Shown in pieces: positions 3,715-10,302 of a stretch of 36,682 nt of DNA (positions are counted from its first letter, which is position 1; the number at the start of each line of letters is the position of its first letter). This DNA comes from a virus (taxonomy: Duplodnaviria; Heunggongvirae; Uroviricota; Caudoviricetes). The translations under genes were made by a program, and so were the position numbers. The stretch is from IMG/VR virus record IMGVR_UViG_2545824713_000010. The stretch is one strand, 5' to 3'. The notes below the pieces were generated by a model. The model ran no database searches. It was not told the origin of the DNA and saw only the letters and a program-made list of their open reading frames with translations.

Positions 3715-4010
3715 GCACCATCAATCACCAGAAGCTACGCGAACTGGCATTTGCCCTGCAACGAATGGCAACGCTTCAAAAATTACTGGCATTTCGCGCA
3801 ATGCTCTCGCCGTCTGCTGTGCTGGCGCTGCAGGATGAGCTGGAGCACGCCAGAACCACACCTCTAGCCATTCGCCTGACGCTCCGTCATGAAATCGAGG
3901 ATTTCTGCGCGACGTTGGAGGCGCCAGGTGAACCGGAAACGCCGGAAGCAATACAGCAAGAGCTGCTGCAACGCATTGACAAGGTTTTTGATTTTTTTCT
4001 GAACCACTAA
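3711..4010 (+). CDS. Hypothetical early protein
   Basis: 99-aa ORF, ATGA overlap with the upstream ORF. Confidence 0.5.
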   Translation: MSTINHQKLRELAFALQRMATLQKLLAFRAMLSPSAVLALQDELEHARTTPLAIRLTLRHEIEDFCATLEAPGEPETPEAIQQELLQRIDKVFDFFLNH

Positions 4011-4332
4011 GAAACCAGAACATGCACACACAAAAAAACCGCTTGCCATGCCGCAATCAGCCAGGTTACATTTCCGCTGCACCTCACAAAACGGGTGCCG
4101 GGTTTCGCAGCCTGCTGACAAACATAGCGCACAACCGCGCCAGCGGTTTTTTTGTGCGTACTGTATCGCCACGTTTTTTTCGCACACGAATTATGGCGGG
4201 GCGTACGGGGCCGACTTCGGTCGGGCCGGGTTCTATGTTTGCCGGTACTGCGAACCTCGTACGTCTCGCCACCCACAGTTTCGCAGCTCTGGATGGTGAG
4301 TTTTCAAAACTTACACACATAGAGGCCACACC

Positions 4333-4563
4333 ATGGCAAACCGCAAACAGCACCGCACTATCGCGGAGCGTCGTCACATCCAGACTGAAATCGATCGCAG
4401 ACTCACCCGCGCTGCACACATCGCCTTTATCATGCAATCCAACACATTGCACAGACTCAACAGCACTATTTCAGCCGACTACTGCGCCGCTGTATTCAGC
4501 TATCTGGCGGAAGACCTCCTGTCTCTTCAGGATCTCATCCAGCAGCAAAACAAACTCCATTAA
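4333..4563 (+). CDS. Hypothetical protein
   Basis: 76-aa ORF with RBS agagg. Confidence 0.4.
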   Translation: MANRKQHRTIAERRHIQTEIDRRLTRAAHIAFIMQSNTLHRLNSTISADYCAAVFSYLAEDLLSLQDLIQQQNKLH

Positions 4564-4635
4564 TTCCTGTTCCGGGCCTTTCCTGCACCTTGCGGCGGGA
4601 GGCCTTCGCACATCTGTAACAAGAGGATTGCCGCA

Positions 4636-5001
4636 ATGATTCTCGCCAACGACTTTCTTGAATACCTGCTCAACACAGAGCGTGATCTTGCCGTTCGCGT
4701 GCGTGAACGTTATGACATGTACCTGAAATCCCTGCCTGTACCGCAGCTCGCTGACGGAAAGATTGTTATTGATGGTCGCTACATGATTGACAGCCACGAG
4801 GGAAATTACAGGCTTTACCGCATTGAAGGTGGCACTCCGTCCGTTATTGGCATTTACCAGCGCCCATCCTCTGCAATCGTCGATGTGATTGCCGACAGCA
4901 TCCGCATCACACATCGCTATGCCGACACAGAAGACACCGTGCTGGAAATTCAGCGGCTGGCTGCCGTTTGCCGTGACACCCTGAACGGTATGACGCAGTA
5001 A
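4636..5001 (+). CDS. Hypothetical protein immediately upstream of A
   Basis: 121-aa ORF with RBS aagagg. Confidence 0.5.
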   Translation: MILANDFLEYLLNTERDLAVRVRERYDMYLKSLPVPQLADGKIVIDGRYMIDSHEGNYRLYRIEGGTPSVIGIYQRPSSAIVDVIADSIRITHRYADTEDTVLEIQRLAAVCRDTLNGMTQ

Positions 5002-5007
5002 ATCAGT

Positions 5008-7830
5008 ATGACGACAGAGTACATCAGGGACTGGCAACAACCGCGCCACGCAGTGGGGCGTGAAGGAACGGGGATCCCCGCACCTGAATCCGCGCTTTCC
5101 TCCTGGCTGGATGCCTACCGGGCAGAGAACGAGCGCCGACAGGAAAAGGCTGATGCGGCGTTCTCCGCCACGCCGCTGGGCAACCTGATTAATAAAAGCC
5201 TGGATGCACAGGAAAAACAGGACAAAACCATCACACTGGCAGGAGACGCCAGAAAGCAGGCACGCGGCGCGGTGGATGAAGCCATGGCCTCGCTGCGCCT
5301 GCTGCCGTCCTATCTGCGCGATCCGCTTATTCGCCACCTCTCCTTCCTGCGCAAAAAACAGGAATCTGACCGCCAGAAAGGTAAAAAGAACCAGCAGGCG
5401 GAACGCTATGCACGCGGAACCCTGCGCAAAATATTCGAACGTCTGGATCGCACTGACGGACGCTGGCTGACACCGGGTTATCGCTCCCTTGCCGGACGCG
5501 AACGCCTGGACGATTTGCTTTACCTGCCGCAGCTCAACAAACACCAGATACAGACGCTGGCCACCATGACGGCGGCGATGTTCAGCAGCACCTTCGAAAA
5601 ACTCTGCGATGGCTTTGGCGCGACCGATGGCGAACTGACCATGGATGTAACGCTGAAGACGTATCAGATGCTGGCCCGCATGGCGTTACACCTGCACATC
5701 ATGCCTCCACATTATGACGCACTGACAACAGATAAAGACCGGAGGAACGAACCGGACACGGAGCTGCTGCCGGGCGCAGTCCTTCGCCTGACCTGTGCGG
5801 AATGGTGGAAACGCAAACTGTGGCTGTTACGTTGCGAGTGGAGAGAAGAACAACTCCGCGCCGCCTGTCTGGTTTCCAGAAAAACATCGCCCTATCTGAG
5901 CCAGGACGCATTAAGCGAGTTTCGCGCACAGCGCGAGAAAACACGCGATTTCCTGAAAAGTTTCATGCTGGAAAATGAAGACGGGTTCACGATTGATCTC
6001 GAGACGGTGTATTACGCGGGAGTAAGTAACCCGGTTCACCGTAAGGCAGAAATGATGGCCACCATGAAGGGGCTGGAACTTCTGGCCGAAGCCCGTGGCG
6101 ACAGAGCGGTGTTTCTGACTGTCACCTGCCCGTCAAAATACCACGCAACAACGGAGAACGGTCATCCGAATCCCAAATGGAACGGGGCCACCATGCGCGA
6201 CTCCAGCGATTACCTGGTTAACACGTTTTTTGCGGCGGTCCGCAAAAAACTGAACCGCGACGGTCTTCGCTGGTATGGCATCCGCACGGTGGAGCCTCAC
6301 CATGACGGCACTGTGCACTGGCATATGATGGTCTTTGCACATCCGGACGAGATTGAAACCATCGTGTCCCACGTCTGCGATATTGCCATTCAGGAAGACC
6401 GCCACGAGCTGGGCGATGACATAACTCCGCGTTTTAAAGCGGAGTACGTCGACGGCTCAAAAGGCACGCCAACCAGCTACATCGCCACCTACATCGGAAA
6501 GAACCTGGACAGCCGCGCCGTGGATGGTATCGACCCGAAAACGGGCAAGCCACGCGTTGACCACGAAACCGGAAAATCAATGGCCGAGAGCGTGGAGCGC
6601 GCCATCGGCTGGGCGCGCCTTCACCGGGTCCGCCAGTTCCAGTTCTTTGGCATCCCCTCCCGTCAGGTGTGGCGTGAACTGCGCCGCCTTGCCAGCCAGA
6701 TGGCACGCAACCCGGAAGGCCCGCAACGGCTGAAGGATGACGCAATGGATGCAGTGCTCGCTGCCGCTGATGCCGGGTGTTTTGCCTCCTACATTGAAAA
6801 ACAGGGCGGCGTACTTGTTCCACGCAAAGACTACCTGATTCGCACCGCCTACGACCTCGCAGATGAGCTGAACGATTACGGCGAACAGAGCGTACAGATT
6901 TACGGGATCTGGTCACCACTCATCGGGGAGTCTTCCCGTGTGTGCACACATCCGGATAACTGGAAGCTGGTAAGACGTAAACCGGAAGCGGAAGACAGCG
7001 CCCGCGAAAATGGTTTTGACCTTCAGGGCGGTCCTGCCGCCCCTTGGACTCGTGGCAATAACTGTCCCCGTGTACAGGAAACAGGCAACAGCGGGACAGA
7101 ACAGTCGAAAGAACGGCCAGCACCGTGGCCGCAGCTTCCTGACGGCGTTGAAGTGAACGAATGGATGCGCTCACTGAAACGGCACGAACGCCGGGCGCTG
7201 ATGCGTTCGCTTCGTGACAAACAGGCAAAAAACAGCAGTGATGAAATGCAGAGCTGGACACAGAGCCGCAAACAGCAGCGGCCTTTGCCTGATAACCACG
7301 AATTACTCGCTAAAGAATGGCGGGAGTCTGCCGAATCTCTCGGCCTGCATATCGGTGAACAGCAGACGCAGCACCTGCTACGGGGCGGCAGCCTGTACGT
7401 TGACGGCAGCATCATTGCACCGCAGGGATATGAAATTGTACGCAAACCGGATACCCGCCCGGACAGCCGAATCACGCAGCTCTGGCAGCACCTGAGCCGT
7501 AATCACGGCGTAAGCAGCACGGAGATCCGCCATAACCCGGTCGCCAGCTATCTGGCACAGCTGGGGGCATCAGACCCCGAAGCCGCCGCACGCCTGGCAT
7601 CCGCACTTCAGCAGGATCAGAACACCATGAAAACACCCGTTACCGTGCTTTCTGACATGCTGCGCGCCATCCGCGACGCAGAGCACGCACAGAGAATCAG
7701 TGAAACCACTGAACGCGCCAGCCGCAAAGCAGACCTGCTGCAGGGTGGCCTGACCAGTGGAAACAAAAAACAGACAGAAACGGGACTCACGAATCCCGTA
7801 AATGAGCAAAAAACGCGCAGCGATATATGA
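5008..7830 (+). CDS. A: Replication initiation endonuclease, P2 gpA family (rolling-circle initiator), with a long C-terminal extension
   Basis: 940 aa; HUH-like motif TVHWHMMVFAHPDE and paired tyrosines in YIATYIGKN are typical of the gpA nickase; position matches P2 A. Confidence 0.85.
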   Translation: MTTEYIRDWQQPRHAVGREGTGIPAPESALSSWLDAYRAENERRQEKADAAFSATPLGNLINKSLDAQEKQDKTITLAGDARKQARGAVDEAMASLRLLPSYLRDPLIRHLSFLRKKQESDRQKGKKNQQAERYARGTLRKIFERLDRTDGRWLTPGYRSLAGRERLDDLLYLPQLNKHQIQTLATMTAAMFSSTFEKLCDGFGATDGELTMDVTLKTYQMLARMALHLHIMPPHYDALTTDKDRRNEPDTELLPGAVLRLTCAEWWKRKLWLLRCEWREEQLRAACLVSRKTSPYLSQDALSEFRAQREKTRDFLKSFMLENEDGFTIDLETVYYAGVSNPVHRKAEMMATMKGLELLAEARGDRAVFLTVTCPSKYHATTENGHPNPKWNGATMRDSSDYLVNTFFAAVRKKLNRDGLRWYGIRTVEPHHDGTVHWHMMVFAHPDEIETIVSHVCDIAIQEDRHELGDDITPRFKAEYVDGSKGTPTSYIATYIGKNLDSRAVDGIDPKTGKPRVDHETGKSMAESVERAIGWARLHRVRQFQFFGIPSRQVWRELRRLASQMARNPEGPQRLKDDAMDAVLAAADAGCFASYIEKQGGVLVPRKDYLIRTAYDLADELNDYGEQSVQIYGIWSPLIGESSRVCTHPDNWKLVRRKPEAEDSARENGFDLQGGPAAPWTRGNNCPRVQETGNSGTEQSKERPAPWPQLPDGVEVNEWMRSLKRHERRALMRSLRDKQAKNSSDEMQSWTQSRKQQRPLPDNHELLAKEWRESAESLGLHIGEQQTQHLLRGGSLYVDGSIIAPQGYEIVRKPDTRPDSRITQLWQHLSRNHGVSSTEIRHNPVASYLAQLGASDPEAAARLASALQQDQNTMKTPVTVLSDMLRAIRDAEHAQRISETTERASRKADLLQGGLTSGNKKQTETGLTNPVNEQKTRSDI

Positions 7831-7878
7831 AGCGCGCAAAAAACAGGCAAAAACGGGATTTCAGAATCCCGTAAACGA
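7765..7878. repeat. Two imperfect 41-bp direct repeats (7765..7805 and 7838..7878), each with an internal palindrome (acggga...tcccgt)
   Basis: Copy 1 encodes the last codons of A; copy 2 lies in the A-parM spacer with a perfect 8-bp inverted repeat acgggatt/aatcccgt. Confidence 0.6.
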
Positions 7879-7906
7879 TTAATTAATCAACATAAGGAAA
7901 AGCGAC

Positions 7907-8866
7907 ATGAAAATTTGTATCGACGACGGCTCCACCAACATCAAGCTGGCATGGACTGAGAACGGCGAACGCCGCAACGCCATCAGCCCGAACAGCTTCA
8001 AGTCGGAATGGTCTGCGCCGTTCGGTGGCACGCAGCCCGCGAACTACATGCTTGATGGCGTGCGCTATGGTTTTGATCCGGTCAGCGATCGCTTTGTCCA
8101 GACGACCGACACGCAATACCAGTACAGTGATGTGAATGTCATTGCCATTCATCACGCGCTGGTCAAATCAGGCATCACGCCACAGGAGGTGGATGTGGTT
8201 GTCACCCTGCCACTGAGCGAGTATTTCGACACAAACGCACAGCCGGACATAGCCAACATCAACCGCAAAAAAGCGAACGTTATGCGCCCGGTGGAGTACC
8301 AGAACGGCGAAGCATTCACTATCCGTAACGTGCGGGTTATGCCTGAATCCATTCCGGCTGGCTTTAAGGCACTGGCTGACATGAGTCCGTTTGAATCCCT
8401 GCTGATTGTGGATTTGGGCGGAACCACGCTGGATGTGGCAAAGGTTCAGGGGCAGCTGGCAGGTATCAGCCAGGTGTTTTGCGATCCACACGTAGGCGTT
8501 TCCCTGATGGCTGATGCCGTGCTGTCGGTGATGGCCACTAACGGTATGCGTACCAGTCACCACATCGCCAATACCATTATTGAGCACCGTCACGATGAAG
8601 CCTGGCTGCGCCAGCACATTCACAATGACGCGCATTACAACAGCCTGATGGCGGTTATTCGTGAAAAGGAGGAGACACTGAAACAACGAGTGATCCGCGC
8701 GCTGGCGGGTTTTTCCGGTTACGGGCGGGTGATGGTTGTCGGTGGAGGGGCGGAGATTGTGGCACCCGCTATCCGCGAAGCCTGCGGAGTTAATGCGACT
8801 TTCATCACGGACGGGGTGCCACATTTTGCTCTGGTTAATGGGCTGTACGCAATGAACAAGGAGTAA
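7907..8866 (+). CDS. parM: ParM/StbA-family actin-like ATPase
   Basis: 319 aa; N-terminus MKICIDDGSTNIKLAW closely matches plasmid R1 ParM/StbA as recalled (FIDDGSTNIKLQW), and YSDVNVIAIHHAL resembles the R1 WQYSDVNVVAVHHAL region; length equals ParM; RBS aagga. Confidence 0.8.
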   Translation: MKICIDDGSTNIKLAWTENGERRNAISPNSFKSEWSAPFGGTQPANYMLDGVRYGFDPVSDRFVQTTDTQYQYSDVNVIAIHHALVKSGITPQEVDVVVTLPLSEYFDTNAQPDIANINRKKANVMRPVEYQNGEAFTIRNVRVMPESIPAGFKALADMSPFESLLIVDLGGTTLDVAKVQGQLAGISQVFCDPHVGVSLMADAVLSVMATNGMRTSHHIANTIIEHRHDEAWLRQHIHNDAHYNSLMAVIREKEETLKQRVIRALAGFSGYGRVMVVGGGAEIVAPAIREACGVNATFITDGVPHFALVNGLYAMNKE

Positions 8867-8870
8867 ACCA

Positions 8871-9182
8871 ATGACGACACCAACCAGAAGAATAAGTTTC
8901 TATCTGAAGCCAGCTGCCGTCAAGAACGAAGGAGAAGCATGCGCCTGGCTGGACAGCCTTACACCAGAAGCCCGCAAAAGCGGCCAACGCGTGGCTTTTC
9001 TGGCCGGGCTGGCACTTCTGAAGACGAATCCGGCAGAGGCTTACCGACTGGCCGCATGGGCTGATGATGAGATGTTACCTGTGACACAAATCAGCTCAAA
9101 AAAGTTTGAAGCACAGTCTGCACCAGTGGCTAAGATAACCAGCCAGATGGCTGGGAATATCCGGGCGTTATTTCCTGAGTAA
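8871..9182 (+). CDS. parR: ParR-like ribbon-helix-helix adaptor
   Basis: 103 aa directly after parM. RISFYLKP and LDSLTPEARKSGQRVAFLAGLAL parallel R1 ParR (RTIAFKLNP, LDSIPQGERSRLNRAALTAGLAL) as recalled from memory. Confidence 0.55.
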   Translation: MTTPTRRISFYLKPAAVKNEGEACAWLDSLTPEARKSGQRVAFLAGLALLKTNPAEAYRLAAWADDEMLPVTQISSKKFEAQSAPVAKITSQMAGNIRALFPE

Positions 9183-9310
9183 AAGCATCTGCGCGAAAAA
9201 TGCTCACATTTATAGAAACAGTATCATTCCATTTGGCGCACTTACTTCAATAATCGATCTGTTAAACAAATAGATTGTCTATTATCTATCGATTAAAACG
9301 ATCAATTATC

Positions 9311-9338
9311 TTGACAGTAATGTGCCTTTTTGTAAGAT
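9311..9338 (+). promoter_or_regulatory. Sigma70-like promoter (TTGACA, 16-nt spacer, TAAGAT) preceded by a dyad aatagattgtctatt
   Basis: Near-consensus -35 and -10 hexamers read directly; dyad at 9270..9284 could be an operator. Confidence 0.4.
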
Positions 9339-9344
9339 CGTTCG

Positions 9345-9530
9345 CATTGTGAGCGACAAGATAATTGCGCGGCATTGTCCATGCAAAACGCCCCAATAGC
9401 AGCAACTATTGGGGCGTAGAACTCGGTCGGACTCACTTAACCTGATATGCGTGCCTTCCGAAGTAAATCAAAATGTGCGTCGTATATTTTATTGCTTACA
9501 CGCACCTCTGTAAAGGCACGCATATTTTTC
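9345..9530 (+). ncRNA. Candidate structured RNA or attenuator leader
   Basis: Perfect 12-bp stem acgccccaatag/ctattggggcgt (9388..9417); long-range 13-bp pairing atatgcgtgcctt (9445..9457) with aaggcacgcatat (9513..9525) followed by a T-run, immediately before the RBS of the 9547 ORF. Confidence 0.3.
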
Positions 9531-9546
9531 CTATGAGGTAAATAAA

Positions 9547-9816
9547 GTGCGGGCTAAAACAGGTATTTGCAAGAACCCTCATCGTTATAACCCAACATTT
9601 CTGTCTCTCCCTGAATATCAAGGACAAGAAGGTCGGCACAAATGCGCTGCCTGTGCTTTTGAGCTAGGCATAAAAGATGCGCTTGAAGGACGCGCTATGG
9701 CTCAGAATGATTTAGTTTTAGCTAACATTCCGTTTAGCCAGGCTGGAACTGTAAGGCACAGAGATGCTTATGAAGCATATGTTCGTGGTTGGCGATTAAT
9801 ACACAGCAACAATTGA
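9547..9816 (+). CDS. Hypothetical 89-aa protein with paired cysteines (CKNPH...CAACAF)
   Basis: GTG start with RBS tgaggt; followed by a strong terminator; function unknown. Confidence 0.5.
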   Translation: MRAKTGICKNPHRYNPTFLSLPEYQGQEGRHKCAACAFELGIKDALEGRAMAQNDLVLANIPFSQAGTVRHRDAYEAYVRGWRLIHSNN

Positions 9817-9823
9817 TATTTTT

Positions 9824-9849
9824 GAAGCGCCGATAAGGCGCTTTTTTTT
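9824..9849 (+). terminator. Rho-independent terminator (aagcgcc gata aggcgctt plus T8)
   Basis: GC stem and run of eight T immediately after the stop of the 9547..9816 ORF. Confidence 0.65.
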
Positions 9850-10060
9850 GTTTGCACGATAGTGCACAAGTTTGCACAATTTTTTTGAACGACTTTTTGT
9901 ACTTCCGGCCCGCGTGGCGGCTGGATCCGTCAAGGATCCGTACGTGCACAAAAAACGCGTTTTTTCTACGCGCAGGTGACGGGGGAACAGCCCGCGTTTC
10001 AGGGGGTAAATAGCATTCCCTGAACGATGTCGCAGAGATAGAACAGAATGGCTGTATTTC
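9850..10060. other. Probable cos / packaging region
   Basis: Non-coding stretch between the cargo slot and Q, where P2 cos lies; contains cgcgtggcgg reminiscent of P2/186 cohesive-end sequences (from memory), ggatccgt direct repeats and the palindrome aaaaaacgcgtttttt. Exact cos termini not determined. Confidence 0.3.
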
Positions 10061-10302
10061 TCACGCTGAGCGTGAAAAAGACGTGAGGGCTTTTGATTTG
10101 ATGGGGTGAAAGGTAAGGCCGTCAAAATCGCACTGAGACGGCGAGAACATGCAGTCAACGCGGTGGGATTGCGTAAGAGTCTGACTGTCGATGATGGCAA
10201 TCAGCAGGAAAGCGTCGTGAAATTATCTGACTGATACAGGAGCTGGAGAGTCGGGGCATAAATTTTTTATGCCCCGGCGAAGCAGCAGACAAGCGAAGCG
10301 CG

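Follow-up and report, generated by a model that had tools for sequence, protein, structure and literature searches.

The 36,682-nucleotide stretch analysed here (IMG/VR virus record IMGVR_UViG_2545824713_000010; the whole of it is called the window) belongs to a P88-like (Xuanwuvirus) P2-type prophage of Escherichia coli, in which the replication gene A is followed by parM and parR. Two 42-bp repeat units separated by a 31-bp spacer lie across the junction between A and parM, and together they probably constitute parC, the centromere and operator of a compact parC-parM-parR cassette. This reading is favoured because of the position of the units, their co-inheritance with the two genes, their two-block architecture and the co-variation of their layout with the type of ParR. 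As read from its sequence, the element is a candidate type II partition centromere for an R1-family ParR, with a two-dyad build, joined to a phage replication gene at that gene's 3' end.

ParMRC systems are the textbook example of actin-based plasmid segregation, and the logic of their centromeres comes mainly from plasmid R1 with its ten direct iterons. In the window, the repeated units stand immediately upstream of the parM-parR operon, an actin-like ParM and a small ribbon-helix-helix adaptor, ParR, are encoded next to them, and the units are specific to the cassette, being unique in the window and inherited with parMR. The original prediction for this DNA had offered a protein-binding site, with ParR binding as a check, as one of several explanations of the repeat. 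It is the option favoured here, since the units travel with parM-parR, are absent where other cargo is present and keep their two-dyad layout in diverged cassettes.

Anatomy of the repeat pair

The repeat is direct and imperfect, pairing positions 7764-7805 with 7837-7878 at 35 identities in 42 nt and a start-to-start distance of 73. When 7400-8000 was shuffled 500 times with its dinucleotide composition preserved, the best repeat of 42 nt averaged 23.8 matches and reached 29 at most. It had been described as a 41-bp tandem duplication; the repeat itself holds, at 42 nt, but the copies are not strictly tandem, as 31 bp lie between them. Half-unit patterns match only the two units in the 36.7-kb window, where 0 matches are expected by chance.

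Each unit contains an inverted repeat, as had also been noted: in unit 2 its 8-bp arms are perfect (ACGGGATT-TCAG-AATCCCGT; arms at 7853-7860 and 7865-7872), and in unit 1 it is imperfect (7780-7799). Each unit further carries one GGG-N10-CCC dyad, a pattern with 7 occurrences in the entire window, and the two dyads are 73 bp apart. Unit 2 begins 7 nt past the stop codon of A and ends 29 nt upstream of the parM ATG (7907). The repeat region is rich in A on the sense strand of parM (45% A, 13% T), and the autocorrelation of A-tracts, examined for helical periodicity, is flat. The elements of the junction are as follows.

7764 to 7805, plus strand: first unit of the candidate parC; an A-tract head (CAAAAAACAGACAGAAAC) precedes a dyad, and the whole falls within the coding sequence of A.
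7782 to 7797, no strand assigned: dyad 1, GGGACTCACGAATCCC (GGG-N10-CCC), 125 nt upstream of the parM ATG.
7806 to 7836, plus strand: central spacer, with a third copy of the A-tract head at 7806-7819 (repeat family D4), the A stop codon at 7828-7830 and a weak -10-like TATATG.
7837 to 7878, plus strand: unit 2 of the candidate centromere, intergenic.
7855 to 7870, no strand assigned: dyad 2, GGGATTTCAGAATCCC (GGG-N10-CCC), 52 nt upstream of the parM ATG.
7877 to 7890, plus strand: GATTAAT..AA motif, whose columns are invariant in an alignment of four diverged lineages.
7894 to 7899, plus strand: Shine-Dalgarno-like AAGGAA, read from the sequence, 8 nt upstream of the parM ATG.

The A-tract head that recurs in the spacer is GCAAAAAAC..., and the spacer region at 7814-7838 holds two CGCGCA motifs, both of which have become CGTGCA in a Hafnia relative (L014), a parallel change. 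The GATTAAT at 7877-7883 could be a -10-like element forming part of a promoter, or a piece of the ParR site.

Limits of the cassette and its co-inheritance

The limits of the cassette were read from relatives of the window. A total of 126 A/parM junctions (91 of them unique) was assembled through an IMG/VR pattern scan anchored in the start of parM and through contig look-ups; a scan of genome contigs with ParM gave only 3 near-identical loci, so that the diversity considered here comes from protein searches, contig look-ups and the IMG/VR scan. On the left, the cargo junction can be placed within some twenty nucleotides.

7745 to 7766, no strand assigned: left boundary of the parC-parM-parR cassette, marked by loss of similarity in L005-L007 and gain of similarity in L019, L133 and L069.

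Three E. coli loci (L005-L007) have an A gene 92-94% identical to that of the window over 7300-7745 and carry other cargo. Their similarity to the window ends at about 7715-7745, and both units are absent. The slot after A is occupied in L005 and L007 by three unnamed open reading frames (ORFs) on the minus strand (4000-6700) and in L006 by a defence-like cargo with an AAA ATPase and an S8 peptidase (4155-7445). The original prediction had regarded the absence of the repeat from relatives with different cargo as a sign of coincidental resemblance; such relatives do lack it, which assigns the repeat to the parMR module and does not make the resemblance coincidental.

Conversely, the junctions show both units behind four kinds of upstream sequence, namely the common 940-aa A, a 153-aa ORF (L019 and L133), a 159-aa ORF (L069) and a diverged Hafnia A (L013 and L014). 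In L019, L133 and L069, resemblance to the window sets in precisely where unit 1 begins, at about 7766; the 159-aa ORF of L069 stops 41 nt upstream of unit 1, which is non-coding there. At the right edge, the similarity of relatives stops at the parR stop codon, with different genes beyond. Because the limits of similarity fall at these two points, the conserved mobile unit in these sequences is unit 1, spacer, unit 2, parM and parR (about 7766-9182), which has the shape of a plasmid par cassette. The genes that follow parR in relatives are variously zf-ClpX-like, Ead/Ea22, HicAB, KAP NTPase and Rrf2.

More than 98% of the 126 junctions retain both units. The departures include L109 from IMG/VR, with a clean 73-bp deletion between the units (window 7785-7857) that leaves one hybrid unit and an altered C-terminus of A, and L042, where only part of unit 2 remains beside a truncated parM.

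Conservation of the layout in diverged cassettes

P2-like prophages with parM-parR directly after A occur well beyond E. coli, with ParM identities to that of the window of 63% in Plesiomonas (L142), 61% in Hafnia (L143), 58% in Serratia (L144) and 54% in Enterobacter (L145). Exactly two GGG-N10-CCC dyads, at nearly the same places, stand within 220 bp upstream of parM in the window, in the Hafnia locus L014 and in L142 and L143; ParM identity to the window in these cassettes is 61-88%.

Window (E. coli): dyads at -125 and -52 from the parM ATG, spacing 73 bp.
Hafnia L014: dyads at -124 and -51, spacing 73 bp.
Plesiomonas L142: dyads at -131 and -59, spacing 72 bp.
Hafnia L143: dyads at -128 and -55, spacing 73 bp.

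The layout is thus kept where the sequence is not. The four lineages are poorly alignable around the dyads, and the columns without variation are concentrated in the GGGA...CCC..AA cores and the GATTAAT..AA before the ribosome-binding site. In L142 and L143, unit 1 likewise overlaps the end of the upstream ORF. Hairpin stability is not maintained in these two lineages, where the stems are 3-4 bp long with 10-nt loops and z-scores near 0.

In the Serratia and Enterobacter loci, the beta-strand of ParR reads NRKISFYL rather than TRRISFYL, and the arrangement of the repeats differs as well. The upstream regions (3380-3480 in L144, 3380-3475 in L145) hold two inverted repeats of 14-20 nt with 26-28 bp between them, together with a GCCGTTTAAACGGC palindrome, and the left arm in L144 shares AACAGGCAAAAACGGGA with unit 2 of the window. 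The Serratia/Enterobacter layout may represent a second specificity class. Plasmid homologues (IncI, IncL/M, IncF and R1-like; ParM 46-52% identical) have A/T-rich 11-bp iterons and no short dyads.

The ParM and ParR proteins

The assignment of the two downstream genes rests on the following matches.

7907 to 8866, plus strand: parM, actin-like partition ATPase of 319 aa (Pfam PF06406, StbA_N/ParM, and PF21523; R1 ParM structures 1MWK and 4A62, E about 1e-92).
8871 to 9182, plus strand: parR, adaptor of the R1/StbB family, 103 aa (Pfam PF10784, E = 9.8e-24).

ParR is 26% identical to R1 ParR, and an alignment with the ParRs of R1 and other plasmids shares N-terminal and C-terminal motifs. Among Escherichia variants, the overall identity of ParR falls to 42-56%, with residues 1-50 and the C-terminal NIRALFPE almost unchanged and a hypervariable linker. 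The N-terminus TRRISFYLKP..., the ribbon-helix-helix part that reads DNA, is invariant among the E. coli variants (proteins P0006-P0081), and this constancy fits the near-unchanged units at those loci. The most divergent ParR (P0081, at L017) adjoins insertion sequence fragments and a broken A gene, and this locus may be decaying.

Fusion of the cassette to gene A

The gene at the left of the cassette is the following.

5008 to 7830, plus strand: gene A, replication endonuclease of 940 aa (ORF and translation; Pfam PF05840, E = 1.8e-129).

The stop codon of A is the TGA at 7828-7830, and the RefSeq annotation of phage P88 has the identical end. The first copy of the repeat (7765..7805) had been taken for the last codons of A; unit 1 is in fact internal, encoding about residues 920-933 (...KKQTETGLTNPVNE...), and the final ~22 codons of A are read from unit 1 and the spacer. 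In all relatives, the tail of A past about ...ADLLQ is lineage-specific. In the lineage of the window it would appear to be an in-frame reading of the left end of the cassette, a by-product of the fusion, and the overlap of unit 1 with the frame of A would come only from the joining of the cassette to the 3' end of that gene. The original prediction of a duplicated A 3' end has the direction reversed, for it is the frame of A that runs into a repeat pair owned by the parMR cassette.

Proposed mechanism and its weak points

In the mechanism proposed here, ribbon-helix-helix ParR dimers, or dimers of dimers, would bind the GGG-N10-CCC dyads and perhaps also the AAAC or A-rich heads. Each block would consist of one 42-bp unit, roughly four turns of the helix, with a symmetric dyad at its centre, and the 73 bp between dyads, about seven helical turns, would place both on one face of the double helix. 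Through its conserved C-terminal peptide, ParR would then capture ParM filaments, and these, by analogy with known systems, might move or position circles of phage DNA, excised or replicating. ParR at parC would probably also limit the expression of parMR.

A more ambitious form of this proposal is that the cassette is a complete, active ParMRC machine, in which an unusual two-dyad centromere, joined to a replication gene at its 3' end in an integrating P2-type prophage found in about a quarter of sequenced E. coli, acts on the excised or replicating circle. It could position or segregate copies and so permit a plasmid-like carrier state or efficient lytic replication, and a ParR roadblock could couple read-through from A to the dosage of parMR. 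This more complete picture is possible but doubtful.

Several observations weigh against the centromere and operator reading. Two units are few for a centromere, and R1 parC, with ten direct 11-bp iterons and no dyad, is built differently from two 42-bp dyad units over about 115 bp. Among E. coli sequences, unit 2 varies no less than its surroundings (nucleotide diversity, pi, 0.084 vs 0.048 at nearby third codon positions), and the single-unit allele L109 exists. A Rayleigh test of the AAAC heads at 10.5-bp phasing gave p about 0.05, a weak signal that applies to the window only and is not seen in other lineages. A search of PDB sequences with ParR returned no match. As for regulation, no sigma-70 promoter with at least 9 of 12 matches was found at 7700-7906 or in L142 and L143; there is only a weak -10-like TATATG in the spacer of the window, and the conserved GATTAAT. 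Because no sigma-70 match reached the threshold in any lineage, the operator role is unsupported, and parMR may be read through from A.

Alternative explanations

An alternative is that the repeat has no function and is a scar of the insertion of parMR after A, either a local duplication or a recombination joint. In its favour, the cargo boundary directly adjoins the left side of unit 1, recombination between the units occurs, as the 73-bp deletion in L109 attests, and unit 2 is not unusually conserved within E. coli. However, a scar would not preserve two dyads at 72-73 bp and a fixed distance to parM across diverged lineages, nor would the near-universal retention of both units among the junctions be expected, given the risk of recombination. 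Moreover, the repeats do not flank the cassette, as there is no copy at its right end, after parR or elsewhere in the window. This explanation is unlikely, and the earlier idea of a recombination joint marking where cargo is exchanged fails on the same ground: the boundary at 7745-7766 only adjoins unit 1, and the repeats lie inside the module. Transposon-like flanking repeats were also considered and rejected, as there are two copies only, both on the left side.

It is improbable that the units act as stem-loops in plus-strand RNA, in the processing or stability of an A-parM messenger or in parM translation, or that they bind a protein other than ParR. The folding energies of the plus-strand hairpins are -9 and -10.7 kcal/mol (z-scores -3.2 and -3.9), unit 2 closely precedes the parM start codon, and the units are probably co-transcribed with A, as no separate promoter was found. 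Against a role in RNA, the stability of the hairpins is not conserved in L142 and L143, there is no covariation, and no Rfam match was obtained (E <= 1). Among other possible ligands, A, Cox, Ogr and the repressor are unlikely, since relatives with the same backbone and other cargo lack the units.

The hairpins could also be intrinsic terminators for leftward, minus-strand transcription, shielding A from transcripts of the cargo or late region. On the minus strand, a terminator scan picks out both units, whose 8-bp stems precede T-runs (TTTTTGCCTG and TTCTGTCTGT), along with a weaker stem in the spacer, and the minus-strand hairpins fold at -10.2 kcal/mol. Such elements would make sense where cargo points towards A, as in L005, L007 and the tin-old region of P2. 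In the window, however, parM and parR are on the plus strand, no minus-strand gene ends at the units, and the units travel with parMR rather than with A. Plesiomonas and Hafnia (L142 and L143) keep the dyads, but the scan finds no terminator there. Further, the 91 unique junctions contain 0 compensatory double changes, and the one-sided transitions (8 giving a minus-strand wobble, 4 a plus-strand wobble and 4 a mismatch) favour neither strand. A terminator had been among the functions first suggested for the repeat, and it finds no support on either strand: the plus strand lacks a U-tract, and the terminator-like look of the minus strand is missing from the Plesiomonas and Hafnia versions. The probability of this explanation is accordingly low.

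It is very improbable that the hairpins are a phage replication origin, or a single-strand initiation signal that A would use in rolling-circle replication. The units do overlap the 3' end of A, P2-type phages have their origin within that gene, and initiators of the HUH type commonly work close to hairpins, but relatives with the same A and other cargo lack the units, and the nick site annotated in P2 (GCGCCTCGGAGTCCTGTCAATAAC) has its aligned counterpart at 7039-7070 of the window (GCCGCCCCTTGGACTCGTGGCAATAAC), about 700 bp upstream. By its similarity to that annotated site (GCCGCCCCTTGGACTCGTGGCAATAAC vs GCCGCGCCTCGGAGTCCTGTCAATAAC in P2), 7039-7070 is likely the A nick region of the replication origin.

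Comparison with known systems

The parC of plasmid R1 spans 159 bp and has direct 11-bp iterons in two sets of five, with roughly one ParR dimer on each iteron, around a 39-bp promoter segment (PMC2241845); the iterons can be seen in the R1-like locus L004. The candidate parC of the window resembles it in lying directly upstream of parM-parR, in its A-rich sense strand and in having two repeat blocks around a central segment; the cognate ParM matches R1 ParM (E about 1e-92), and the two ParR proteins share a Pfam family. Apart from the form of the repeats, the window differs in that its spacer has no clear promoter, in that unit 1 and the spacer double as the coding end of A, and in that the carrier is an integrating phage and not a plasmid.

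In the SXT/R391 elements, srpC consists of four 13-bp repeats, direct as well as inverted, upstream of an actin-like gene, and both SrpR binding and plasmid stabilisation have been shown experimentally (PMC4489591). The srpC-srpM-srpR locus is the closest in circumstance, being a ParMRC-type cassette on a normally integrated element, with a centromere of few repeats upstream of the actin-like gene. On the other hand, SrpR has no recognisable similarity to ParR, whereas the window encodes a PF10784 ParR, the sequence and layout of the repeats are different, and the carrier is an integrative and conjugative element rather than a P2-like phage. The function of srpC, moreover, rests on experiments, and that of the parC proposed here is read from sequence.

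A third case is prophage CGP3 of Corynebacterium glutamicum, where alpS comprises 24 short TTAAnnG repeats and AlpAC is proposed to link circular phage DNA to filaments, supporting the replication of phage DNA (PMC4446434). Here, too, a prophage-encoded actin-like filament is joined by an adaptor that binds repeats upstream of the operon, although in alpS-alpA-alpC the adaptor gene comes first and the actin-like family and the host phylum are unrelated.

Implications

The papers found by full-text searching describe neither a parC nor a role for ParMR in P88 or P2-like phages. The papers on P88 name the gene merely as a partition protein, and a 2025 study of chromosome-encoded ParMs covers other taxa. 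If the proposal is true, it would add a new mode of centromere recognition for R1-family ParR, through dyads and not direct iterons, and a cytoskeletal step to the biology of P2-like phages. It also raises the question of what use a partition machine would be to a phage that normally integrates. If ParR binds the dyads, the cassettes would offer a compact, naturally variable model for the evolution of ParR specificity, and the single-unit allele L109 would provide natural material on the sufficiency of one unit. For annotation, the last ~22 codons of 'A' in these phages would be candidate centromere DNA read in frame.

The prophage and its distribution

The region 7400-8300 is matched by 14 phage records at 95-99% identity, and 7300-8000 has a match in 1380 of 5426 complete E. 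coli genomes, EDL933 (O157:H7) and UTI89 among them. The P88 record carries no annotation at the A-parM junction. Downstream of the cassette, the portal and terminase genes lie on the minus strand; Pfam searches with the unnamed ORFs up- and downstream returned nothing. The interval between parR and portal (9183-10302) contains no ORF recognisable by Pfam and shows promoter-like matches at 9311-9338 on the plus strand and 9514-9486 on the minus strand; from the gene order of P2, the cos site is expected within it.

Finally, six plasmid records encode a ParM 95-99% identical to that of the window, and the one inspected (H15, Salmonella IncHI2) proved to be the same prophage integrated in a plasmid. 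In the Salmonella plasmid pS2122_1 (L147; IncHI2, 272 kb), an integrated P88-like prophage has A-parC-parM-parR intact, which gives that plasmid an extra ParMRC cassette.

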